IMG/VR virus record: IMGVR_UViG_3300031957_000416
Span: 1-52,141 of that record
Strand: one strand, 5' to 3'
Source of the DNA: a virus
Taxonomy: Duplodnaviria > Caudoviricetes
Length of the DNA stretch: 52,141 nucleotides
In this document: positions 26,068 through 47,611 of the stretch, piece by piece
Numbering within the stretch: the first letter of the stretch is position 1
How the letters are laid out: every line of letters starts with the position of its first letter
Program-made: the position numbers and the translations under genes
The notes under the pieces: model-generated
Told to the model about the DNA's origin: nothing
Seen by the model: the letters and a program-made list of their open reading frames with translations, nothing else
The model's database searches: none

Positions 26068-26284
26068 CCCACAATCTGTAGATTGTTTTTACAGAAATAT
26101 GTATAACTATTACAAGGAAGGGCACGAGAGAGATATGGCTAAAAAAAAGAAAGAAGAAGATTGGTGGGATACTCATCTAATTATAGATGGTGTAGATGAA
26201 GCAACTGCAAAGCAGATAAAAAACAAACTCAAGAAGAAACTAGAAAAGGAATTGACTCGAACAAATGGTAAAACCCAAAGCTAG
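26054..26284 (+). CDS. Hypothetical protein
   Basis: 76 aa ORF. An internal start at MAKKKK is possible. Confidence 0.5.
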   Translation: MKGSSPQSVDCFYRNMYNYYKEGHERDMAKKKKEEDWWDTHLIIDGVDEATAKQIKNKLKKKLEKELTRTNGKTQS

Positions 26285-27347
26285 CTATAGTGGTAGTGTT
26301 CGTGTCAGGGAGCAGGTTAGTAGTCGTGCCTGCTCCCAAACTAAACTTACAACAATAGATTTATTTTCAGGCATAGGCGGATTCGCACTAGGCTTAGAAG
26401 GAACAGGATACTTTGAAACTATACAGTTTGTAGAGATGGATAAGTTCTGTCAAAAAGTATTAACTAAAAACTTTAAAGGAGTACCAATACATGAAGATGT
26501 CAAAACCTACAATCCCCCAACAGCTGACGTTGTCGTTGGAGGATTCCCTTGTCAAGGATTCTCAGTTGCAGGAAAAAGAAAAGGCACAAGTGATGACCGC
26601 TATCTCTGGCCAGAGATGTTACGAGTCATTAGAGAAGCAAAACCGAGGTGGGTTATTGGAGAAAATGTGCGAGGAATTATTAACATCGAAGACGGCATGG
26701 TATTCAAACAAGTGCACTCTGACTTGGAAGAAGAAGGCTTCCAAACAAAATGTTTCGTACTTCCAGCTGCTAGCGTCAACGCACCGCACCAAAGATACAG
26801 AACGTTCTTCATCGGACAAAGTATGGAGAACTCCAGACGCCCATTGCAGTCGAGGAGCATCAAGCAAGAAGAGAATGAAAAAGAAAATAAAGGAGGGACT
26901 GCCCATAAGTCTGAACGATCAGGTAGCACACGAGAAGATGTTGTGGCCAACAGCGACAACAGATACAACAGACAGGAAGAAGAAGTATGCACAAGGGGGA
27001 ACACCTCTAAGCCTGGCAGTGAAGATGTGGAGAACTCCTCAAGCATCAGATCACAAGAACATGGACACGGCAAATCAAGTGATGTTATCAACTCAAGTCA
27101 AGATGTTTCAGACACCTACAACGAGAATACACAAGGACAGTGGCAAGGGGAAGTGCGAAGTGAACAGGAAGTCTCCTACGTTAGCGATGCAAGCTGGTGG
27201 GAGTTTGAACCCCAGGTGGGTAGAGTGGCTAATGGGATTCCCGATAGATCACACAGACTTAAATCATTAGGTAATGCCGTAGTACCACAGTTAATATATC
27301 AATTAGGAAAAGCTATAGGAGTTGCGGAAGGACTTGACAAGAAATAA
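26265..27347 (+). CDS. DNA (cytosine-5) methyltransferase, catalytic (alpha-like) chain lacking motif IX
   Basis: Motifs I (DLFSGIGG), IV (GGFPCQGFS), VI (ENV), VIII (HQRYRTF) and X (LGNAVVP). Confidence 0.9.
   Translation: MVKPKASYSGSVRVREQVSSRACSQTKLTTIDLFSGIGGFALGLEGTGYFETIQFVEMDKFCQKVLTKNFKGVPIHEDVKTYNPPTADVVVGGFPCQGFSVAGKRKGTSDDRYLWPEMLRVIREAKPRWVIGENVRGIINIEDGMVFKQVHSDLEEEGFQTKCFVLPAASVNAPHQRYRTFFIGQSMENSRRPLQSRSIKQEENEKENKGGTAHKSERSGSTREDVVANSDNRYNRQEEEVCTRGNTSKPGSEDVENSSSIRSQEHGHGKSSDVINSSQDVSDTYNENTQGQWQGEVRSEQEVSYVSDASWWEFEPQVGRVANGIPDRSHRLKSLGNAVVPQLIYQLGKAIGVAEGLDKK
26491..27270 (+). CDS. Nested +1-frame methyltransferase partner (beta-like) chain
   Basis: AAAGGAG 9 nt before the ATG. 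Four W/F-x-T-P/A repeats. Motif IX-like LNPRWVEWLMGFP. Confidence 0.8.
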   Translation: MKMSKPTIPQQLTLSLEDSLVKDSQLQEKEKAQVMTAISGQRCYESLEKQNRGGLLEKMCEELLTSKTAWYSNKCTLTWKKKASKQNVSYFQLLASTHRTKDTERSSSDKVWRTPDAHCSRGASSKKRMKKKIKEGLPISLNDQVAHEKMLWPTATTDTTDRKKKYAQGGTPLSLAVKMWRTPQASDHKNMDTANQVMLSTQVKMFQTPTTRIHKDSGKGKCEVNRKSPTLAMQAGGSLNPRWVEWLMGFPIDHTDLNH

Positions 27348-28166: not shown

Positions 28167-29356
28167 TTAAATTACTACTCAAAAAAAATTTTTATGAAAA
28201 GAATAAAGGTAAAGTATCTAAGACTACATTTAGTAATGGATTAGGAAACTTTTTTTCTACAATAGAAAGAGCACATCATGATTATGAAGATGATCTAACT
28301 ATAGATGATCTTATAAATTTACATACAGAAAAGTATAATCCTGCACTTACAAGGGCAGCTAAATTAAACTTTGAAACTTTAGTACAAGAGATAAAGAAAG
28401 AGCAAGAGCCTAACGCAGCAGTTGCTTCAGATATTATTGAAGCTGTACATAAAAGAAACTTAGCACACAAAGTTGCAGTTATAGCTACAGATATATTTAA
28501 CGGACAAGACAAATCTTTTAATGAAATCAAACAGTTATTAGATGGCACAGAAGAAGAAGCAGATGAGCACCAATCAGTTACGGAAGATATACCAGAGCTT
28601 ATAGACTCATTAGATATACAAACTAAATTTCAATTTAACCTACCAAGTTTACAAGAACAAGTTCCAGGTATTGGACCTGGCAATTTAGTTATTGTGTTTG
28701 CAAGGCCAGAGTCAGGTAAGACTGCGTTCTGGGTTAATCTTGTTGGTGGGCTACAAGGTTTTGCATCGCAAGGTGCGAAAGTCTGTGCATTAATAAATGA
28801 AGAACCTGCAGTCCGTACTCAGATGAGAGTCATCAATGCACATACAGGCATGACAAAAGATGAGATAATAGATAATATGGATTTAGCAAAAGAAAAATGG
28901 AAGGAGATAAAAGATAATGTTAAACTTTTGGACACTGTTGATTGGACTATTGATGATGTCGATAGTTTTTGTAAGCATCACAGGCCCGATATACTTGTCA
29001 TTGACCAGCTAGATAAAGTTAATATGTCTGGTAATTTTACTAGAACAGATGAGAAACTTAGAGCTGTATACACAGGGGCAAGAGAGATAGCTAAACGACA
29101 CGAGTGTTGCGTGGTAGCAATATCACAAGCATCAGCAGATGCACATGGTAAGACCAGAATATCATTTGATATGATGGAGAACTCAAAGACAGGTAAAGCT
29201 GCAGAGGCAGATTTAATTATAGGGATAGGTAAGCACGGCACTTTAGATTCCTTGGATACTACTAGGGTTATGTGCATAAGTAAGAATAAGATATCTGGAT
29301 ATCATGGAGAGATTACTTGTAACATTGAGCCACAACTATCGAGGTACAGAGTATGA
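28148..29356 (+). CDS. Replicative DnaB-like (SF4) helicase
   Basis: Walker A ARPESGKT, ILVIDQLD, ISQAS, EADLIIGIG and KNKISG. Confidence 0.9.
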   Translation: MQERQLIKLLLKKNFYEKNKGKVSKTTFSNGLGNFFSTIERAHHDYEDDLTIDDLINLHTEKYNPALTRAAKLNFETLVQEIKKEQEPNAAVASDIIEAVHKRNLAHKVAVIATDIFNGQDKSFNEIKQLLDGTEEEADEHQSVTEDIPELIDSLDIQTKFQFNLPSLQEQVPGIGPGNLVIVFARPESGKTAFWVNLVGGLQGFASQGAKVCALINEEPAVRTQMRVINAHTGMTKDEIIDNMDLAKEKWKEIKDNVKLLDTVDWTIDDVDSFCKHHRPDILVIDQLDKVNMSGNFTRTDEKLRAVYTGAREIAKRHECCVVAISQASADAHGKTRISFDMMENSKTGKAAEADLIIGIGKHGTLDSLDTTRVMCISKNKISGYHGEITCNIEPQLSRYRV

Positions 29357-30153
29357 AAAAGCTAACAGTAATATCATTGGGTGCAGGAGTACAATCAAGT
29401 ACCATGGCACTAATGGCAAATAATGGCCTCATAGATCCTATGCCTACCTGTGCTATTTTTGCAGACACACAAAATGAACCCAAATATATATATGAATACT
29501 TAGAGTATCTAAAGGGCATATTAAAGTTTCCTGTGTACACAGTAACAAAAGGAAACATAAAAGAGGACATGCTAAAGCCCACTACTGGAGGTTATACCTT
29601 TCCTACTGCACCTTTCTATACTCTAAAGAATGGAAAGAAAGGCATGGTCATGCGGCAGTGCACAAATGACTACAAGATTCAAGTTATAAGAAAAAAAATT
29701 AGGGATCTTTTAGGGCTAAAAAGATATCAGCATGTAAAAAAAGATATGTTTGTTGAGCAATGGATAGGCATATCTACAGATGAAATTGCCAGAAAAAAAC
29801 CAGCCAGAGACAAGTTCATAACTAACAGATGGCCTCTTCTTGAAGAGACAATGAATAGGCAAGATTGCATTGATTGGATGAAAGAGCATGGGTATAAAAT
29901 GCCAGAGAAAAGTGCATGTAATATGTGCCCATTTCATGATGACAAATACTGGGCTAACCTTAAAAAGAATCACCCTGAAGAATTTGCTGACGCTGTTGAT
30001 ACAGATACCAAAGTAAGAAATCTTGGAAGAGATAAAGATGCAGAACTATTTATACATAAAACTTGCAAGCCACTATCTGAGGTTAAATTTGACACGGAAG
30101 AAGACCAATTAGATATGTTTGATAATGCCTGCGAGGGTATGTGCGGAGTTTAA
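29353..30153 (+). CDS. PAPS-reductase-like (adenine nucleotide alpha-hydrolase) protein
   Basis: PP-loop-like ISLGAGVQS, IFADT, RQCTNDYKI, WIGISTDE and KSACNMCPF. Confidence 0.72.
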   Translation: MKKLTVISLGAGVQSSTMALMANNGLIDPMPTCAIFADTQNEPKYIYEYLEYLKGILKFPVYTVTKGNIKEDMLKPTTGGYTFPTAPFYTLKNGKKGMVMRQCTNDYKIQVIRKKIRDLLGLKRYQHVKKDMFVEQWIGISTDEIARKKPARDKFITNRWPLLEETMNRQDCIDWMKEHGYKMPEKSACNMCPFHDDKYWANLKKNHPEEFADAVDTDTKVRNLGRDKDAELFIHKTCKPLSEVKFDTEEDQLDMFDNACEGMCGV

Positions 30154-32739: not shown

Positions 32740-33591
32740 GTGATGTCTAACAATGAAGTGGCTAACATAGACGGTCTATCGCAAGATCAGATCATGTCTA
32801 TGATTGGCCAAGAGAAATCTTCTACTGGCAACTTCTTACCGAAGCTAGCCATAAATAGATTTCCAGAAAACGATGATGGTGCGGAAGTGCCAGTAGGATC
32901 ATACGGTGTGTATGTTCCTGAACTAGATAGTTACGCTTATGGAAAGCCAGTAACTTTTAGACCATTCATGAATGCATATCAGTATATGAAGTACGATGCA
33001 GACAAGAATGAATACAGCAACAGAAGTATAATCTTTAAGTCTTGGAAAGATGAGGCTATAGATATACAAGGTGGCGTGAGATGTGGTAAGATACCAGCAA
33101 AAGAACTTGCTAATATTTCTGATGAAGAAAGAATGAAACAGAAAGCGATAAAGTGTTATCGTTTAGTTTATGGTTTAGTTTCTTTTAAAGGTACAGTGCC
33201 AGGAGGAGACACAACAGAAGTAAAAGACTTACCTGTGTTGTGGAAAGTAACAGGCAGTAACTTTAAACCTGTTGGAGAGGCTATAGAAAGTCTTAGACGC
33301 AGAGGTAAAGTAATGTTTAATCACACACTTGAACTTAAAACTATGAAGAAGAAAGCAGGCAGTAATGTATTCTATGTCTCTAATATATCAGTCAATCCAG
33401 AAGAGGTTACGTTCACTGATAAAGAAAAAGAAATTCTCTTATCTTTTCAAGATGTTATCAATACTGAGAACGAAGAAATAGTAGAGCTCTGGCGTGCTGC
33501 TAAGAAGGCATCTCCTAGTACAGCGGATGCAAAAATCATAGAAGTAGCAGACGATCTAGAAGGCGATCCAGCGGAGATACTTGCTTCGTGA
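32740..33591 (+). CDS. Putative ssDNA-binding / annealing protein
   Basis: 283 aa between the polymerase and exonuclease genes, acidic C-terminus, strong RBS. Function inferred from position. Confidence 0.55.
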   Translation: MMSNNEVANIDGLSQDQIMSMIGQEKSSTGNFLPKLAINRFPENDDGAEVPVGSYGVYVPELDSYAYGKPVTFRPFMNAYQYMKYDADKNEYSNRSIIFKSWKDEAIDIQGGVRCGKIPAKELANISDEERMKQKAIKCYRLVYGLVSFKGTVPGGDTTEVKDLPVLWKVTGSNFKPVGEAIESLRRRGKVMFNHTLELKTMKKKAGSNVFYVSNISVNPEEVTFTDKEKEILLSFQDVINTENEEIVELWRAAKKASPSTADAKIIEVADDLEGDPAEILAS

Positions 33592-34481
33592 GTTCAGACA
33601 TCCTAGAAAAAGTTAGGGTGTTTCTTGAGGCCGCATCGAAGGATGCGGTTGAGGTATCCGATGATTTGATTGACCAGTTTGGTAAGGCTTGTGCTGATTC
33701 ATTCCGCAAGCAATTTACTGACCAAAGAAAAAAAGAGTTTGGTCTTAGGGCATCAAACATCGGAAGACCTTTATGTCAACTGCAAATGGAAAAGAAAGGT
33801 GTTAAAGGAGAGTCACAGCCATATAATTTTAAGATGAGAAATTTTTTTGGTGACTTAGTAGAGCAAGCTGCTATGATAATTATGAAAGCATCTGGAGTAG
33901 AGATACAATCAGAGCAGACAAAGACAGAATATAAACTTGATGGCACAAGTGTAAATGGCACACTTGATGTAGAGATTGAAGATAAAGTATGGGATATTAA
34001 AAGTGCATCTCCCTGGTCATTCACTAATAAGTTTGGAGAGAACGGTGGGTTCCATGCAGTAGCAGATGATGATCTGTTTGGATACCTAGCACAGGGCTAT
34101 ATGTATGCAGAGGCTAGACAAAAACCATTTGGTGGGTGGATAGTAATTAATAAATCTACAGGAGAGTGGGTGCTAACAGAGGCACCAATAGCTGATGATG
34201 AGTATAAAGAAAAAGCAATTAGTGATATTGACAATAATATAAGAGCTATAACTTTAGACAAAGAATTTAAAAGATGTTTCAAAGATGAAGATGAGTACTT
34301 TAGAAAGCAGAAGACAGGTAATAAAGTTCTAGGTACGGCATGTAGTTTCTGCCCTTACAAGTTTCCTTGTTGGGGAGAAAACTTGCAGATGCTGCCACAA
34401 CAGCAATCGCAAGCTAAAAACCCTAAATGGGTTTGGTATACTAAGGTTAATAATCCTAGGGTAGAGGACTATGACTCCTAG
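33588..34481 (+). CDS. PD-(D/E)XK exonuclease (Cas4/RecB-like)
   Basis: LRASNIGRPLCQL, GTLD, WDIKSAS, YLAQGYMY and CSFCPYKFPC. Confidence 0.82.
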   Translation: MSSDILEKVRVFLEAASKDAVEVSDDLIDQFGKACADSFRKQFTDQRKKEFGLRASNIGRPLCQLQMEKKGVKGESQPYNFKMRNFFGDLVEQAAMIIMKASGVEIQSEQTKTEYKLDGTSVNGTLDVEIEDKVWDIKSASPWSFTNKFGENGGFHAVADDDLFGYLAQGYMYAEARQKPFGGWIVINKSTGEWVLTEAPIADDEYKEKAISDIDNNIRAITLDKEFKRCFKDEDEYFRKQKTGNKVLGTACSFCPYKFPCWGENLQMLPQQQSQAKNPKWVWYTKVNNPRVEDYDS

Positions 34482-40723: not shown

Positions 40724-43700
40724 CTATTTTGAACCTGGCGGATATGCCAGTATAATATTATTGTTGTGTAAAACTGATCTTATAAAATCATCTCGTGTCA
40801 TATTGTGTCTATCACCATATGCTTTTAATCTACCTAAAACTGTATTGCTCATAGTCTCCATTCTATTAGTGACTTTCTCTATAAACTGGTCTTGAGTATA
40901 TCCTAAATCCATAGCACTATCTGTGTAGAACATTATATTATCATATAAACCATCATAACCATCAGATGCAGCTGCAGTAACTAAAGCATTAATTTTATCT
41001 TTTTGGTTCATACTTATTTTTGTACTTTGCCATATACTTTTTAATATAATAGACTCCTCAAATGTACGACCACCTAAATACCTAGCCCAAAAACCTCCAA
41101 TGTCCCTTTCAATTTGCCCTCTCATATTTTTATATGGATTGGTAACAACATATTTTCCTTCTTTAAATTGAAAATACATACCTCTTTCATCTGTAACGTC
41201 TCTTGGAACTTTTGATTCTTTTTCAAATCCTGGTATCACAGAGAACATAGCCTCTCCTGATACTCCAGAAAATCTTCTTTCAACATCTGCTAGTAATACA
41301 GTTGGCATTGATGACTTTAAAAACTTGTACATATCAACGTCACTGTATGTTCCTGTAGCAGCTTTCATTACTACGTTAAATGCATTACCTATAACACCCT
41401 CATTTGTTTTTGATGTCATACCAAACAAAGCATCTAATGTTGGTAAACTAAATATATCTCCAGGACCAAGTCCTGGTGCAGCTAGTGTAGACGATACGTC
41501 AACACCTAGTATTCCAGATGGCAATCCAAACTTTTGCTCTGGTGCTATGTCTAATTTTAATACTGTTTCAGTATACTCTGGTATTCTATACTGACTAGGG
41601 TTATCTACTTTAGCAGCTTTTAATCCAAACTGAACGCCATCATTCATTTTTCTTAGTAGGTAATCTACTTGGTTTACTCCCATAATACCAAATAATCCTG
41701 CTGTCATAATCATACTTGTAGCATGCATTAGTAAAGGACTAGCAGCTTCAAATGATTTAGGATTTTTTGCCCATGTTCTAGCGTACTGTGCAACTTGACC
41801 ATAATAGTTATGCTGAAATGTTTTAAATAAACCAAACAAAGATCCAATAGTTCCCAATCCTTGGTGAGTATACATCATAGGCCTATTAGTAAAATTATAC
41901 TCAACCATCATATTATCTGTCATCCACTTTGCAGTGTTAAACATATTCTGTTTACCATTAGTTACATCATATTTGCCACTTTTTAAGAAAGAATAGTTCA
42001 TGGCTAGTGCTGTCAATCTACTGTGCCTCTCTGCTATCTCTGATAATCTTTTACCAGTTGCACGTTCAAACATTTTATTAACCATAGACTCAGTAACGGT
42101 TACTATTCTTTCACCTGTTCGTGTGTCTAAGCCAAACTCTTTTAAAAACTTTGTGTCAATAGTACCAGTTCTTAATGCATCTACTACTAATTCTCTAAAC
42201 TCTTTTGTAGGTTTAAATGGAAGATATGATCCCTCAACTACAGCCTTACCTACATCTCCTTTAATTCCATATTCTACTTTCATAAATTGAAGTCGTTGCA
42301 TACCCATTTGATATGGCTGAACTATCTGAGAGTATAAGAATCTTGGGTTAAAAAATAGTAATGCCTTATGTAATGTAAATGAGTTAGCTACCTGTATTGC
42401 TTTTTGAAAAGTATTAGGACTTGAAAACTTTTTAAATATACCAGAGTCTGCTATAGTTTCAATAAGTTTATCTCCTTTTTTAGCAATAAAACTAGCATCT
42501 CTACCAAAAGCATTGTCTACATATTTTTTAGCAAACGTAACTTGTTGCGGTATTAGGTCATTAAATGCACTTCTTCCAGATACTACAGGATCTACTTGTG
42601 CTCTAAATCTTATAGCTTCTGCTGATCTAACTGCACCATCAACATAACCTATGTATGCTTCTGTAAATTCTTCTATTAGTCTACGGCCTTCTTTGCCTGT
42701 ACCTGCGTATCCACCAACATCTTTTCTTGCTACTTTTCTTGCACCAAACCCTCTTGTAGCATTATAATCTTTTTGAGATTGTTTTAGTAGTGTTGCAATC
42801 TCTGGATTTTTTTTGTCCCACAATCTAATAGACTCATCAAAAGATAAATTCATATTTTCTCTTTTGCCACCAACAGCTAAATCAGATTTTAACTCATAGT
42901 TAACTTCATAATTTTTATATTCAGGATTCTTTTTTATAAAAGTATCAAATACACCATACACTTCTTTTTCTGTTTTACCAGCTATAGCATGCACAACGTT
43001 GCCATCTTTACCTGGTTCTTTAATATATAACCTATGTCTGCCTATCCAAGTCCTAGGAAAATAGTTAGGACGTTCTGGTATAATGGTAGCCCCAACTTCA
43101 GGGTTTTGCGTTACAGCTTTATTGTGATATATTCTAGCTTCTGCAAGACCTTTATCTAGATTTTTTATAATTCCTATTTCGTTTGCAGAAAGTTTATATA
43201 AACGTTTCATTTCTTTATAATTCATTTGATATTTAAATGAGCCATCATCTCTCTTAGAAAGTAATTCTTGTTCTATTTTTTCTTTACTTGCCTTTTTACC
43301 AACTGCTTTTTTTGCTAAACTTTGCATTAGAACTTCACGTTCTACCATTGCATTAATTATTTTAGTAGCAGATTCAATACCTTTTTCTTTACCTCTTTCT
43401 TTTAGTAACTGTTCAAACTGAGTCCAAGCACCATCTTTACTCTTAAATGTTTGTATCTTACCAATAATATTTCCAAAGTTATATAGTACACCACCTTGAA
43501 ATATTCCAGGATTTTCTTCAATAAACTTCATTTTATCTGGCTTATAAGATGGATCTATTAGTCTTCTATATAGAATATCATCTTTACCTGCTTCAATAGC
43601 ACGTTGTGTATTTTTAACACCAGTTGTTACAAATCTTAAGAATGCATTTTTAGATGGATCTCCTGCAAGTTTAGCAGGCAATCCAAATGTTTCTACAAAA

Positions 43701-45688
43701 CTTAATATTTTACCAGTAGTTCCTTTAACATTACCAGTAAGATCTACTTCAATAGGTTTGCCATCTTTGTCTAACTTAAAGCCTGTTCTTTCTGCATTTA
43801 GTAAAGTATCTTCTAATTGTCTATAGTGTTTTATTGGTGATTCACCTGGATCAGGCCTTAGATTAATACTAGCAACTGCAAGTCTGGCTATATGTTTTTG
43901 TACTTTATCTATAGATTTTTTGTATATTGTAAGTCTTTTAGTTAATTGTGATTCTTTTTTAGTTTTTAATTCTAGTGCTTTTGGTAAAAGTCCTTTAGCC
44001 CAAGCATCTCCTTTTTTTCTAGACTTAGCAATCTTTTGTATTTGACTTAATTTAATCTCTACCTTTGCACCATCTCCTAAAAACTTTAACCCATGAGTTT
44101 TTGCAAGATCTCTAGCTATACTTACATTTTCTGCAGCTACTCTACTGTTACTACTTCTAGCCTCTAATGATAAATTAAGATCTTCAAATGATGTTTTAGG
44201 TTTTTTTACTTCTGGTGTTTTTCTAATTGGTACAATATTTTTAGTTCTAGCATTGATATGAAATGTCATATCTAAATATTTGCCATCAAGTATAACTTGA
44301 TCTCTAGGTATAGTTACTCTTTCTGTAGCTTCTTTTTCACCTTTTGAAACATCAAGATTTTCTTTCTTTGTTTCTGGCTTTACTCTCTTAAACGGTATTA
44401 AATTTCTGCCTTCTTCTATAGCACGTTTAGTTGCTTTACTTGGTATAAGTAATTCAACATTGCCAGTATCTGGCATTACTTTATCACGCTTATCTCTTTT
44501 AGTTAATTCTTTTTTAGATAGCTCAGTAAATTCAAATGGTATTGGCTCAGTCTCTCTGTGATATCCTTTTCCATTACCTTTTATAAAAGTAAATAAAGTT
44601 TCAGAATGTGCTGTTAATCTTCCAGCATCATTTCTTAGTGAAGCATAAGCAGGCGTTAATGTTAGAGTCTCTTTAGGAGGAGCAGTAAATGCACCTTCAC
44701 CTGGCTTTTTTAATCCTATCATAGGGCCAGCAAATCCTAATCCTGCTAATGTGATAGCACCAGATATAACTTCTGTTGCACCACCACCATGCATCTTAGC
44801 AGAAGCTGCACCAATAGCACCTAATGCTACAGATCGTGTTGCCCAACCAGGTAGCATACCTACACTACCAAATGCAGCACCTTCAATAGTTCCTAATGCT
44901 GTATTAGTAAATACTTTTTCCCAAGGCTGTTCATATGATCCTAAAAATCCCACAGTACCAAATGCAAGAGCAGAACCACCAACAACTGCACCAGGGATTC
45001 CAACTGCAGCTAGACCAGCTATAGCACCAGCTGTATAGGCACCATACTCAGCTATCATTATAGGAGCACCAGCAAATCCTGCAACAACTTGTTCTGCTAT
45101 TGTATCAGGTACAAAGTCTTGACCTAAGTTAAACATATGTTGAGGGCCAAGAGTTTCTGCTGTGTCTCTTAGATAATCTTCTGCACTGTCTATTCCTGCC
45201 AATGTGTGAAATGCAAAACTCTTTAATGAGTTTTCATCTAACGATTTCTTAAACTTTTCTTTTTCAAGTATCTTTTGTTTTAAAACTTCTCTTTCTGCAT
45301 ATGTACCTTGATTAGTATCTATAGCAATATTTTCACCATTAACATAATCAAACTTCCATTGATCAGGATTAGCACCTAGTTTTTCTAGTGTGTAATCTGC
45401 AAGAGCATCTGTCCATCCAGGTATACCACTAAGATTATATACTGCACCTGACAGTGCACTTGAGAATCCATACTTTGCAGCTTTACCTAATTCTGTAGTT
45501 TTAGGCTCTTCAACAAATGGTATATAGTCTAAATTTAATTTTTCTTGTATAGTACCAGCATCATCACTCCAGTAGTTAACCTTTTCTGGCACACCAAACT
45601 GATATCCCGGGACATTATACAATATCCTGTTATCACGTTCCTCAAGAGGTACCTCAGTGATACTCTTAATTTTACCATATTCAGCCAT
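40724..45688 (-). CDS. Large internal virion (ejection) protein
   Basis: 1654 aa with a Gly/Ala-rich hydrophobic segment near aa 200-325. Size and position match podovirus core proteins. Confidence 0.7.
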   Translation of the reverse strand: MAEYGKIKSITEVPLEERDNRILYNVPGYQFGVPEKVNYWSDDAGTIQEKLNLDYIPFVEEPKTTELGKAAKYGFSSALSGAVYNLSGIPGWTDALADYTLEKLGANPDQWKFDYVNGENIAIDTNQGTYAEREVLKQKILEKEKFKKSLDENSLKSFAFHTLAGIDSAEDYLRDTAETLGPQHMFNLGQDFVPDTIAEQVVAGFAGAPIMIAEYGAYTAGAIAGLAAVGIPGAVVGGSALAFGTVGFLGSYEQPWEKVFTNTALGTIEGAAFGSVGMLPGWATRSVALGAIGAASAKMHGGGATEVISGAITLAGLGFAGPMIGLKKPGEGAFTAPPKETLTLTPAYASLRNDAGRLTAHSETLFTFIKGNGKGYHRETEPIPFEFTELSKKELTKRDKRDKVMPDTGNVELLIPSKATKRAIEEGRNLIPFKRVKPETKKENLDVSKGEKEATERVTIPRDQVILDGKYLDMTFHINARTKNIVPIRKTPEVKKPKTSFEDLNLSLEARSSNSRVAAENVSIARDLAKTHGLKFLGDGAKVEIKLSQIQKIAKSRKKGDAWAKGLLPKALELKTKKESQLTKRLTIYKKSIDKVQKHIARLAVASINLRPDPGESPIKHYRQLEDTLLNAERTGFKLDKDGKPIEVDLTGNVKGTTGKILSFVETFGLPAKLAGDPSKNAFLRFVTTGVKNTQRAIEAGKDDILYRRLIDPSYKPDKMKFIEENPGIFQGGVLYNFGNIIGKIQTFKSKDGAWTQFEQLLKERGKEKGIESATKIINAMVEREVLMQSLAKKAVGKKASKEKIEQELLSKRDDGSFKYQMNYKEMKRLYKLSANEIGIIKNLDKGLAEARIYHNKAVTQNPEVGATIIPERPNYFPRTWIGRHRLYIKEPGKDGNVVHAIAGKTEKEVYGVFDTFIKKNPEYKNYEVNYELKSDLAVGGKRENMNLSFDESIRLWDKKNPEIATLLKQSQKDYNATRGFGARKVARKDVGGYAGTGKEGRRLIEEFTEAYIGYVDGAVRSAEAIRFRAQVDPVVSGRSAFNDLIPQQVTFAKKYVDNAFGRDASFIAKKGDKLIETIADSGIFKKFSSPNTFQKAIQVANSFTLHKALLFFNPRFLYSQIVQPYQMGMQRLQFMKVEYGIKGDVGKAVVEGSYLPFKPTKEFRELVVDALRTGTIDTKFLKEFGLDTRTGERIVTVTESMVNKMFERATGKRLSEIAERHSRLTALAMNYSFLKSGKYDVTNGKQNMFNTAKWMTDNMMVEYNFTNRPMMYTHQGLGTIGSLFGLFKTFQHNYYGQVAQYARTWAKNPKSFEAASPLLMHATSMIMTAGLFGIMGVNQVDYLLRKMNDGVQFGLKAAKVDNPSQYRIPEYTETVLKLDIAPEQKFGLPSGILGVDVSSTLAAPGLGPGDIFSLPTLDALFGMTSKTNEGVIGNAFNVVMKAATGTYSDVDMYKFLKSSMPTVLLADVERRFSGVSGEAMFSVIPGFEKESKVPRDVTDERGMYFQFKEGKYVVTNPYKNMRGQIERDIGGFWARYLGGRTFEESIILKSIWQSTKISMNQKDKINALVTAAASDGYDGLYDNIMFYTDSAMDLGYTQDQFIEKVTNRMETMSNTVLGRLKAYGDRHNMTRDDFIRSVLHNNNIILAYPPGSK

Positions 45689-45691
45689 ATA

Positions 45692-47611
45692 CTACTCTGT
45701 ATCTTTAGCTTGTGCTAAGAATTTTTTTATTTTAGGTAGTTGTCGTTTAAAGTCTTTTATATTTTTATTGTAGAATCTTAAGTCTTCTCCATACTGCCCC
45801 TCTAAACTTTGCTCATCCTCTGGATAATTTTCTTTTTTTGGTACATCAAATGAATTAACAAATGACTCCCAAGCTCCCATATTTTCTGAAGCCCAAGATA
45901 ATAACTCTGGGTTTGGCTCTTCTGTGTTTCTAACGTTAAGTTTAGAAGGTGGTAAGAACTCTTCATAGTTATCTCTATTTATAGAAGTAGGTATTACATC
46001 AGGATCTTCTGCTTTCTTTTTATTGTACACTTCAAATTCTTCTTGTGACATATTTAAGAATGGCTGAATAGCTTCCATGCCACCAGATGAGTTTACTATT
46101 TCCTGTTTAAGCAGGTCACGATTATTTGGACTCATGCCAGAGAATACTCCAGAATCTCCTCCAACTAATTGTTTACTGCCATCAGGAGAATATATACCAA
46201 ATAAATCTCTAGCATCTACAATATTAATTGTTTCATAAATATCTTTTGGATTTACAATTTGTAATCCCCCATCAGGTAATACTTGTGGATTAATAGATCC
46301 TGTTATTTGTTTTTCTGTAAAAGGTGCTTCTGGGTTATCTCTAACATCTACAAGAACTTTTACATTTAATCTAGGATCATCTCCAGGATTTTTAAATTGA
46401 CCAAATAAATCATAGTAACCTTGATTTCTATATTCAGCAATTGCAGTCTCTCTGTACCTACTTACAACATCGTCATATAGTGTTTTATTTGTAATTTCTG
46501 TTCCGCCAACATCTATAGAACCTTCAGGATCTTTATTGTATCTATTAATGATTTGAGTATCAGGATTAAGAGGATCTCTTGATAATTCAGAGATCATATT
46601 ATTTGTATAATCTAAAACTGCTCTATCTAATGTACTTAAAGCATTCATGACACTGTTTTGAGATATACGTCCTTCAGCCCTTGCTATATCAATAGCTTCT
46701 CCAATAGTAGACACATTAGGAGATTGTAGCATCATAGTTTGTGCAGTCTGTAGCTGATAGCTAAATTTATATTTTTCTCTTAATAGATCTGCCTGTGCGC
46801 CCATTCCTGGTACAGCGTTAAATGCTGCCATATCTAAATCTTGTTTAGTTAACCTTGGAACCCAGTTTACTGTCTGTGCCATTTTAGTTAAATTCATACT
46901 AGGCAGATCGTCCATTGTAGCTTTATCTACAATATCATTTATGTTTGTTAAAAATTGTTCTTGGCTTACTCTTCCCTCTGTATATTCAGGTGAATCAAAT
47001 GCACTTTCACTAACAACCCCAGGTTGCACAAAATCTTGTACAAATAATTTACTAGCGTTCTCTCCAGTTAAATTAGCAAGGCCTGTGTTAACTTGTTTAT
47101 TATAGGTATCTCTTTGTTGTTTTATTATGTCTCCTACAGTGGCACCTTGTCCATAAACTTCATATATACTTTTTATTTCTTTAGTATCTCCTGTTATATC
47201 TCCAGCTGGAGCAAACTGTTGATTTGCACCTTCTCCTGTTATGTCCCCAGATAAACCTGTAAGCAGGTAACTGTCTATTAAATTTTTTGCCTTACTTATA
47301 TCATTCATCTTGAATAAAGTAGGATTTTTAAAATATAATAAAGCTAAATCATCTTCTTTGTCAGCCCCATATTGACCTTTTAATAATTCATAATTATTTT
47401 TCATAGTGTCAAAGACATTATTTTTAATAGACTGCTGATCTCCTGTTTGCCTTCTAGCATCATTTACTGAATTAAGAACTAAGGTTGCTCCTGCTTGTTC
47501 TCCTTCAGCAATAAGATCTTCTTCAGTTTGCTTTTCTTTTTCTTGCCTTGCAAGTAAACTTCCAAGGGCACCTGTTGCAGCTGGTACTAGTAATCTTTTT
47601 AAATCAACCAT
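45692..47611 (-). CDS. Internal virion protein
   Basis: 639 aa in the core-protein cluster. Confidence 0.6.
   Translation of the reverse strand: MVDLKRLLVPAATGALGSLLARQEKEKQTEEDLIAEGEQAGATLVLNSVNDARRQTGDQQSIKNNVFDTMKNNYELLKGQYGADKEDDLALLYFKNPTLFKMNDISKAKNLIDSYLLTGLSGDITGEGANQQFAPAGDITGDTKEIKSIYEVYGQGATVGDIIKQQRDTYNKQVNTGLANLTGENASKLFVQDFVQPGVVSESAFDSPEYTEGRVSQEQFLTNINDIVDKATMDDLPSMNLTKMAQTVNWVPRLTKQDLDMAAFNAVPGMGAQADLLREKYKFSYQLQTAQTMMLQSPNVSTIGEAIDIARAEGRISQNSVMNALSTLDRAVLDYTNNMISELSRDPLNPDTQIINRYNKDPEGSIDVGGTEITNKTLYDDVVSRYRETAIAEYRNQGYYDLFGQFKNPGDDPRLNVKVLVDVRDNPEAPFTEKQITGSINPQVLPDGGLQIVNPKDIYETINIVDARDLFGIYSPDGSKQLVGGDSGVFSGMSPNNRDLLKQEIVNSSGGMEAIQPFLNMSQEEFEVYNKKKAEDPDVIPTSINRDNYEEFLPPSKLNVRNTEEPNPELLSWASENMGAWESFVNSFDVPKKENYPEDEQSLEGQYGEDLRFYNKNIKDFKRQLPKIKKFLAQAKDTE

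Follow-up and report, generated by a model that had tools for sequence, protein, structure and literature searches.

Can a stretch of phage DNA encode a DNA (cytosine-5) methyltransferase (C5 methyltransferase) as two chains that are read from the same bases in two frames? The question is raised by a locus of an uncultivated tailed phage (Caudoviricetes), IMG/VR record IMGVR_UViG_3300031957_000416, whose 52,141 bases (completeness rated 94%) are referred to as the window. In the list of open reading frames (ORFs) of the window, a frame of 360 aa with an ATG start, named alpha here, wholly encloses on the same strand a frame of 259 aa, named beta, which starts with an ATG of its own and lies in the +1 frame relative to alpha, so that 780 nt are coded twice (Table 1). 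An earlier reading made from the letters alone (the sequence-only reading) had proposed that both frames encode one two-chain methyltransferase. This proposal is supported by a layout that recurs in related loci, by frames that are open far more often than in shuffled sequences, by a switch in the phase of selection, by constrained synonymous sites of alpha and by the predicted complex of the two chains. The locus most probably encodes a two-chain C5 methyltransferase like M.EcoHK31I; judged from sequence, beta would be translated, would form a heterodimer with alpha, and both chains would be needed for activity.

The borders of beta agree with the sequence-only reading. The Shine-Dalgarno-like word AAAGGAG, read directly from the sequence, is separated from the beta ATG by a 9-nt spacer, and the beta stop codon (27268-27270) coincides with the start of the alpha GNAVVP (27270), which places the end of beta directly before motif X.

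The alpha chain exceeds the cut-offs of PF00145 (171.9 bits against 22) and TIGR00675 (158 bits against 100.65), and it also matches phrog_363 (E-values in Table 1). In an alignment of 66 alpha-family sequences, the invariant residues are found in the core (G36, G39, P95, C96, Q97, E133, N134, R177 and R179) and in motif X (G336, N337, V340 and P341). These residues are those of motifs I (FxGxGG), IV (PCQ, with the catalytic Cys), VI (ENV), VIII (R.R) and X (GN..VP). These matches and residues bear out the motifs I-VIII and X read earlier in the 360 aa frame and mark alpha as a genuine C5 methyltransferase core. In the interval from motif VIII to motif X, alpha is without a folded recognition domain and motif IX. 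No position from about residue 190 to 304 has a majority residue in the alignment, and the AlphaFold model has a pLDDT below 50 at residues 213-332, against mostly >90 at residues 28-190 and about 95 in the motif X helix. The alpha-family profile aligns to M.HhaI 12-178 and also to 296-318, weakly and non-significantly when this part is taken alone, and it has no counterpart of M.HhaI 179-295, which comprises the recognition domain and motif IX. A featureless stretch of about 140 aa had been claimed before motif X; this description stands for residues 191-304, which are unconserved and modelled with a pLDDT below 50, and fails for residues 305-335, which are conserved in the frame of alpha itself (W312, E315, P316, V318-A322, G324, R328, R331 and L335, with E315, P316, R320, A322, G324 and L335 invariant). 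Within the latter segment, alpha G-I-P-D and beta G-F-P are read from the same bases; those at 27231-27243 give M-G-F-P in the beta frame and N-G-I-P in the alpha frame, each conserved in its own family.

The beta chain matches phrog_1008, a family labelled 'DNA methyltransferase', over residues 7-257 (profile positions 33-281 of 329). Homologues at E<=1e-3 comprise 402 called proteins among 681 candidates, and 590 of 595 candidate stretches of viral contigs encode a relative. A profile built from 74 members was searched against 1.84 billion representatives and matched 48,025 of them at E<=1e-3, 35,504 at E<=1e-10 and 7,956 at E<=1e-30. By these counts, beta is a real and large protein family; Pfam returned only unrelated families for it (best E 0.12 and 0.44) and NCBIfam returned none. 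The family consensus starts with QLTLF..DS.A...MT.TSG.K....W.S....LTWK, continues with repeated W.TP modules and closes with an invariant LNP.WVEWLMGFP.GWT. The modules of the window are WRTP at residue 112, a degenerate WPTA at 152, WRTP at 180 and FQTP at 206, with T114, P181, T182 and P183 nearly invariant, and most relatives have 2 to 4 of them. The C-terminus of the window's beta reads LNPRWVEWLMGFP, a pattern invariant in the family, and residues 236-259, whose amino-acid pair identity is 0.74, include the invariant P241, V244, E245, L247, M248 and G249. We take this end to be motif IX-like from a short pattern and from its modelled contact with motif X. The sequence-only reading had described beta as the chain of motif IX, which suits this end and is too narrow for the whole chain, as beta also holds the conserved WxTP repeat region. 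A Shine-Dalgarno-like word of at least 4 bases precedes a candidate beta start in 71 of 75 loci, a count made without a control and not used as support. Long C-terminal extensions past the motif IX-like end (414-454 residues), running beyond the alpha stop, were observed in L014:789-2033 and in the database proteins P0016 and P0018.

The nested layout was followed by tblastn with the N-terminal part of alpha, the C-terminal part of alpha and beta against 83 loci (80 viral contigs and 3 GenBank phages). The beta homologue is +1 to the N-terminal part of alpha in 81 of the 82 loci with both matches, and the exception (L052:133-1955), from a viral contig, has two nested alpha/beta pairs in tandem, with both frames open in each pair. 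In 79/82 loci, a single frame without interruption holds both the N-terminal and the C-terminal match of alpha, and motif X belongs to the alpha frame in the window as well as in the loci where a C-terminal match exists. One locus (L001) has no C-terminal match, yet is open to its annotated stop, and two (L027 and L059) have one stop each in the N-terminal part of alpha and none in the middle. Measured from stop to stop, the beta frame is wholly inside the alpha frame in 71 of the 82 loci; in the other 11, it runs past either end of alpha (414 codons in L014), alpha is interrupted (L027, L059) or the matches belong to tandem copies (L052). In the loci with all three anchors, motif X follows motif VIII at 40 different distances, ranging from 90 to 299 codons, so that many indels must have occurred, all keeping both frames. 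Whether both frames stay open in homologues despite indels had been named as a check of the two-chain proposal, and the +1 layout in 81/82 loci together with the 40 spacings favours dual coding. Patterns for motif VIII, the motif IX-like end and motif X were too strict and located the full set in only 49 of 84 loci; the expected frames were seen in 51 of 53 anchor triples, the other two (L037 and L057) being alternative pattern matches. Of the 51 in-frame triples, 49 are without a stop in the alpha frame and the remaining two have 1 and 8 stops. The tblastn frame count is the better measure.

Synonymous codons were shuffled with one protein held fixed (300 trials each for this window). In the window, the alpha frame remained open over the middle in 4% of the shuffles and the beta frame over motifs IV-VIII in 1%; the medians over all loci were 2.3% and 9.7%, respectively. 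The alpha frame is open over the middle in 75/75 loci (5.8 expected from shuffles), and the beta frame over motifs IV-VIII in 71/71 (13.6 expected). Furthermore, a codon alignment of 73 distinct sequences, built on beta, was used to compare identity between the three codon phases. At beta residues 1-105, the most variable phase is the alpha wobble (identity 0.47-0.54 against 0.63-0.77 for the other two), and at residues 106-210 it is the beta wobble (0.34-0.38 against 0.44-0.63). All three phases are low at residues 211-235 (0.30-0.35), and the last 24 residues of beta have phase identities of 0.81, 0.81 and 0.64. By this measure, past motif VIII the beta frame takes over from the alpha frame as the one under dominant selection. 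The identity of the alpha wobble is 0.339 before the beta start and 0.318 after the beta stop, and it rises to 0.44-0.52 where beta overlaps motifs IV-VIII. In conserved columns, it is 0.548 (n=43) in the overlap against 0.364 (n=29) outside (Mann-Whitney p=4e-6), and the codon identity of conserved degenerate residues of alpha is 0.536 against 0.344 (p=1.6e-4). Single codons of alpha illustrate the same effect, with L114 being CTC in 60/69 loci and A168 being GCT in 71/72. The synonymous sites of alpha are thus, on these identities, constrained only where beta overlaps, and because the alpha wobble is raised there, even the N-terminal third of beta, where alpha dominates, is under a constraint of its own. 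Taken by their conservation, openness and phase patterns, both frames are conserved and kept open, each under its own selection.

Prediction of the two-chain complex, another check named with the proposal, is supportive without demonstrating binding. The alpha and beta chains together scored 0.89, 0.88 and 0.89, and the best of 3 controls scored 0.00; the mark used was reached by 58/80 solved complexes and by 2/110 mismatched pairs, a calibration that is only rough here, where own alignments were used. The runs share at least 72% of their contacts, with a partner pLDDT of at least 61. The modelled interface joins alpha 160-190 and 305-355 to beta 54-97, 111-120 and 236-258, and many of the conserved residues of alpha 305-335 fall in it. 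The best run pairs beta 88-95 with alpha 162-167, a strand next to motif VIII, and sets beta 54-66 on the C-terminal helix of alpha and beta 236-258 on alpha 335-342, i.e., motif X.

Several natural systems can be compared with this arrangement. The M.EcoHK31I enzyme of E. coli HK31 is an alpha/beta C5 methyltransferase with the recognition sequence YGGCCR (Lee, Kam and Shaw 1995, as described in the available parts of PMC2836561 and PMC3404938). According to the same parts, its alpha carries motifs I-VIII, X and the recognition domain, its beta carries motif IX and is encoded wholly in another frame of the alpha gene, and both chains are required for activity (PMC2836561, PMC3404938); what the sequence-only reading had stated of a motif IX chain in an alternative frame agrees with these descriptions. 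By the published descriptions, the likeness lies in a small-chain ORF wholly inside the large-chain gene, on the same strand and in another frame. The N-terminal deletions of the M.EcoHK31I beta that weaken association (PMC2836561, in the part available) fit the modelled docking of beta 54-97 here. There are two differences. In M.EcoHK31I, the recognition domain is on alpha and only motif IX on beta, as far as the sources describe it, whereas here the conserved repeat region is on beta and the middle of alpha is unconserved; and M.EcoHK31I is part of a restriction-modification system, whereas the gene here is probably an orphan, in a phage replication module. On whether the small chain carries motif IX, the evidence points both ways: LNPRWVEWLMGFP is invariant and modelled against motif X, yet no match to PF00145 was obtained for 74 family members and none to PDB sequences.

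Among other split enzymes, the genes of M.AquI are consecutive and are not known to share DNA. The M.AquI enzyme is a natural two-polypeptide C5 methyltransferase split within the variable region (PMC3404938, in the part available). It differs from the present pair in having motifs IX and X on the small chain, whereas motif X is on alpha here; in one database relative, P0048, a single frame does run through the beta modules, motif IX and motif X. With M.HhaI and other single-chain C5 methyltransferases, alpha and beta together share the order of segments, and the difference is that the interval of M.HhaI 179-295 would here be supplied from the +1 frame as a separate chain. In phage lambda, the spanin genes Rz and Rz1 form an embedded +1-frame pair whose products are subunits of one complex. 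What they share with the present pair is a phage gene embedded in another in the +1 frame, with products that act in one complex; they differ in their unrelated function and sequence, neither product being a fragment of a formerly single enzyme. An annotated example is Paenibacillus phage Shelly (NC_041909), which has the same family and layout, with gp56 (33550-34254) labelled 'g55 internal gene' within the methyltransferase gp55 (33366-34403). Its gp56 is 33% identical to beta over residues 10-258, and the nested ORF is in the +1 frame with WxTP modules and an LNPEWVE.LMGFP-type end; it differs in its Firmicutes host and its distant sequence.

On the two-chain reading, the locus could work as follows. 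Ribosomes starting at 26265 would make alpha, with the AdoMet-binding and catalytic core (motifs I-VIII), the linker, the pre-X segment and the motif X helix; the linker of about 115 disordered residues would be a placeholder, free in sequence as long as its frame stays open. Ribosomes starting at the internal AAAGGAG-ATG (26491) would make beta in the +1 frame. The N-terminal part of beta would dock on the core beside the strand of motif VIII, the four WxTP modules would make up the DNA-recognition (small) domain, and the C-terminal helix, which is motif IX-like, would pack on motif X of alpha. Because no nuclease gene was recognised adjoining the locus in the ORF list and the PHROG annotation of the window, the enzyme is probably an orphan that marks phage DNA against host restriction.

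Variant loci were also encountered. Short nested +1 ORFs over motifs IV-VIII occur in Brochothrix phage BtpYZU03 (L086:1410-1883) and Lactococcus phage 4268 (L085:1361-1870), with 157 and 169 codons and matches to phrog_16143 at 1e-24 and 3e-26, respectively. In BtpYZU03, the gene around the ORF encodes a complete single-chain methyltransferase, whose recognition domain and motifs IX and X are all in frame; the methyltransferase annotated in phage 4268 stops after motif VIII. Both had been intended as negative controls, and they are not clean ones, each carrying this different short +1 ORF. The first ~90 aligned residues of the BtpYZU03 ORF match beta in hhalign with a probability of 93.5%, a likeness partly forced by the shared alpha DNA. 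The nearest DNA match in GenBank is the uncultured marine phage KM23-C739 (L087:1480-2426; 72.6% over 345 nt), whose alpha is split between two frames, with motifs I-III at 1480-1740 and the remainder at 1602-2426, owing to a frameshift or to a sequencing error. Its annotation covers the motif I fragment and the beta frame (1747-2334) and omits the main part of alpha. Among longer proteins, which were screened for fused single-chain forms, 6 match at E<=0.001 and none of them carries PF00145, which is weak evidence. Two of the 120 listed near-length matches carry PF00145, i.e., P0034, which reads motif I and then the whole of beta in one frame, and P0097, which reads motifs I-VIII followed by beta modules and a motif IX-like end in one frame, without motif X. 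These two may be real fusions or assembly frameshifts, and all three proteins, with the P0048 described earlier, could likewise be natural variants or assembly frameshifts.

Several points weigh against the two-chain reading. Pfam aligns alpha in one stretch, residues 29-351 to positions 2-322 of the 324 of PF00145, and the conserved pre-X segment with its G-I-P-D may be a remnant of motif IX retained by alpha. None of the 74 beta family members matches PF00145 at E<=1, and the beta profile finds no chain among PDB sequences at E<=10. The monomer model of beta is poor (mean pLDDT 61.3, pTM 0.28; a hairpin is modelled at 76-96), and Foldseek of this model against the PDB gave no matches at E<=0.001, the weak rows being unrelated proteins, so that this search is uninformative either way. 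The complex prediction may have passed through likeness to solved single-chain C5 methyltransferases rather than through binding, because both chains together resemble a split single-chain fold of which many structures are solved. The related loci share ancestry and their counts are not independent events; moreover, the loci of the shuffle test were pre-filtered for complete pairs, which makes the 75/75 partly a matter of construction and the unfiltered tblastn counts the fairer ones. Finally, BtpYZU03 has a +1 ORF over motifs IV-VIII within a complete enzyme, and an open +1 frame alone does not amount to a split enzyme.

A rival explanation is that beta is real and selected without being obligatory, so that alpha would methylate alone, perhaps with low specificity, and beta would modulate specificity, stability or another process. 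The near-complete Pfam alignment of alpha and its retained pre-X segment would suit such an accessory beta, and BtpYZU03 suggests, with its phrog_16143 protein nested in a single-chain methyltransferase, that a nested partner and a complete enzyme can coexist. Against it, the VIII-X interval of alpha is unconserved, and disordered in the model, a counterpart of M.HhaI 179-295 is missing from alpha, the only conserved sequence of the VIII-X DNA is in the beta frame, and the modelled interface puts the C-terminal helix of beta on motif X. An accessory beta is, on balance, unlikely.

Two programmed ribosomal frameshifts, one of +1 following motif VIII and one of -1 ahead of motif X, would give a single polypeptide with the order I-VIII, recognition region, IX and X restored, and we regard this as very improbable. 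In its favour, the conserved segments follow one another along the DNA as in a single-chain enzyme whose middle third has been displaced by one base, motifs I-VIII and the beta modules after them share one frame in P0097, and a paper on frameshift prediction has methyltransferases among its unexpected calls in phage genomes (PMC10274946, in the part available). Such a mechanism would need neither an alpha frame open through the middle nor a beta frame open for about 100 codons upstream, and both are open much more often than the shuffles predict; beta starts at an AAAGGAG-ATG of its own, and the synonymous sites of alpha are constrained upstream of the junction. Moreover, we know of no precedent for two efficient programmed shifts in one gene. 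Least credible of all, and close to being dismissed, is that the +1 frame is an untranslated by-product of the sequence and codon usage of a single protein, alpha: part of the N-terminal similarity of beta is forced by the conserved motifs IV-VIII of alpha and the alpha wobble is the most variable phase at beta residues 1-105, but the beta-frame selection pattern of the middle region contradicts it, residues of the beta frame are invariant in the middle and at the C-terminus, shuffles rarely keep the frame open, and 48,025 representative clusters match the beta profile.

A tentative addition to the two-chain reading, which we consider doubtful, concerns the origin of beta in two layers, an older overprinted docking gene and a recognition domain with motif IX that was later moved on by a compensating pair of frameshifts, with the WxTP array serving as cassettes. 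The first layer would be a docking gene of about 100 residues over motifs IV-VIII, common to the short phrog_16143 proteins and present even inside complete single-chain methyltransferases. In the second, the recognition domain and motif IX would have been relocated, and the recognition part freed to evolve as WxTP cassettes. If this holds, the number or order of WxTP modules could retarget the enzyme or make it multispecific with the catalytic chain untouched.

Table 1. Features of the alpha/beta locus, in positions of the window.
Feature	Position	Strand	Evidence
Alpha gene, C5 cytosine methyltransferase chain, motifs I-VIII and X, 360 aa	26265..27347	+	PF00145 3.1e-50; TIGR00675 4.5e-46; phrog_363 1.1e-76
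Alpha residues 28-190, catalytic core: motifs I-VIII, PCQ cysteine C96, ENV 133-135	26346..26834	+	pLDDT mostly >90; invariant residues; M.HhaI 12-178 alignment
Alpha residues 191-304, linker, unconserved, predicted disordered, open with sequence not kept	26835..27176	+	No consensus; pLDDT ~38-48
Alpha residues 305-335, conserved pre-X segment (W..EP.VGRVA.G.P.R..RLK.L), over the beta C-terminus	27177..27269	+	Invariant residues; predicted beta interface
Alpha residues 336-360, motif X (GNAVVP) and C-terminal helix, alpha-only coding	27270..27344	+	Invariant residues; pLDDT ~95
Shine-Dalgarno-like AAAGGAG, 9 nt 5' of the beta ATG	26475..26481	+	Sequence
Beta gene, 259 aa, +1 frame, nested in alpha	26491..27270	+	ORF; phrog_1008 2.6e-31; 402 homologous called proteins; 48,025 representative clusters
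Beta residues 1-105, N-terminal part over alpha motifs IV-VIII; 54-97 predicted to dock on alpha	26491..26805	+	Raised alpha wobble identity; complex model
Beta residues 106-235, four WxTP-type modules, presumed recognition region	26806..27195	+	Module positions; beta wobble most variable; near-invariant residues
Beta residues 236-259, motif IX-like LNPRWVEWLMGFP segment	27196..27267	+	Invariant residues; pair identity 0.74; modelled contact with motif X

The locus lies within the replication module of the phage, adjoining the primase and DnaB-like helicase genes, and genes for portal, terminase and DNA polymerase A were also recognised in the window. Directly after the DnaB-like helicase, a phosphoadenosine-phosphosulfate-reductase-like gene (29353-30153, plus strand; phrog_424, 7e-50) may provide a further DNA- or nucleotide-modifying function. 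On the minus strand, an antisense ORF of 163 codons (26600-27091) lies inside the dual-coded stretch and probably results from the paucity of stops in the sequence; the methyltransferase genes of L001-L003 are likewise overlapped by antisense ORFs, of 96-134 codons. Two large minus-strand ORFs of 1654 and 639 codons (40724-45688 and 45692-47611) have no PHROG match at E<=1e-5.

In GenBank, the same arrangement is annotated in Paenibacillus larvae phages, and two features lie under the match in 24 of the 40 listed tblastn rows. Other records are incomplete in different ways, with alpha only in Lacticaseibacillus phages R9.1 and Lc-Nu, and beta with a fragment of alpha in the marine phage KM23-C739. 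The sequence-only reading had supposed 780 nt of dual coding that gene callers would miss; the overlap has this length, and the supposed oversight is not general, given the 402 called proteins, the PHROG family and the annotation as an internal gene in Paenibacillus phages. A term search found no mention of a nested gene in the parts available of the Paenibacillus phage papers PMC6070908, PMC5056774 and PMC11860570. Literature searches, with subscription journals, REBASE and supplements outside their scope, found no paper on a family-wide nested layout in phages, and the layout is not claimed to be unpublished. It is not new, given the precedent of M.EcoHK31I, the internal genes in GenBank and the PHROGs family; it is experimentally proven once, in E. 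coli, and common in phages.

What the locus adds is a strongly conserved same-strand dual coding of 780 nt in which both products are apparently parts of one enzyme. The annotation of such genes is inconsistent across records, which hold alpha only, beta only or both, and therefore expression of the alpha ORF alone, or codon optimisation that disturbs the beta frame, may give inactive or mis-specified enzymes. The family has very many members. Getting the two-chain model right bears on the prediction of phage methylation, on phage-host work concerned with restriction evasion and on the interpretation of methylomes.

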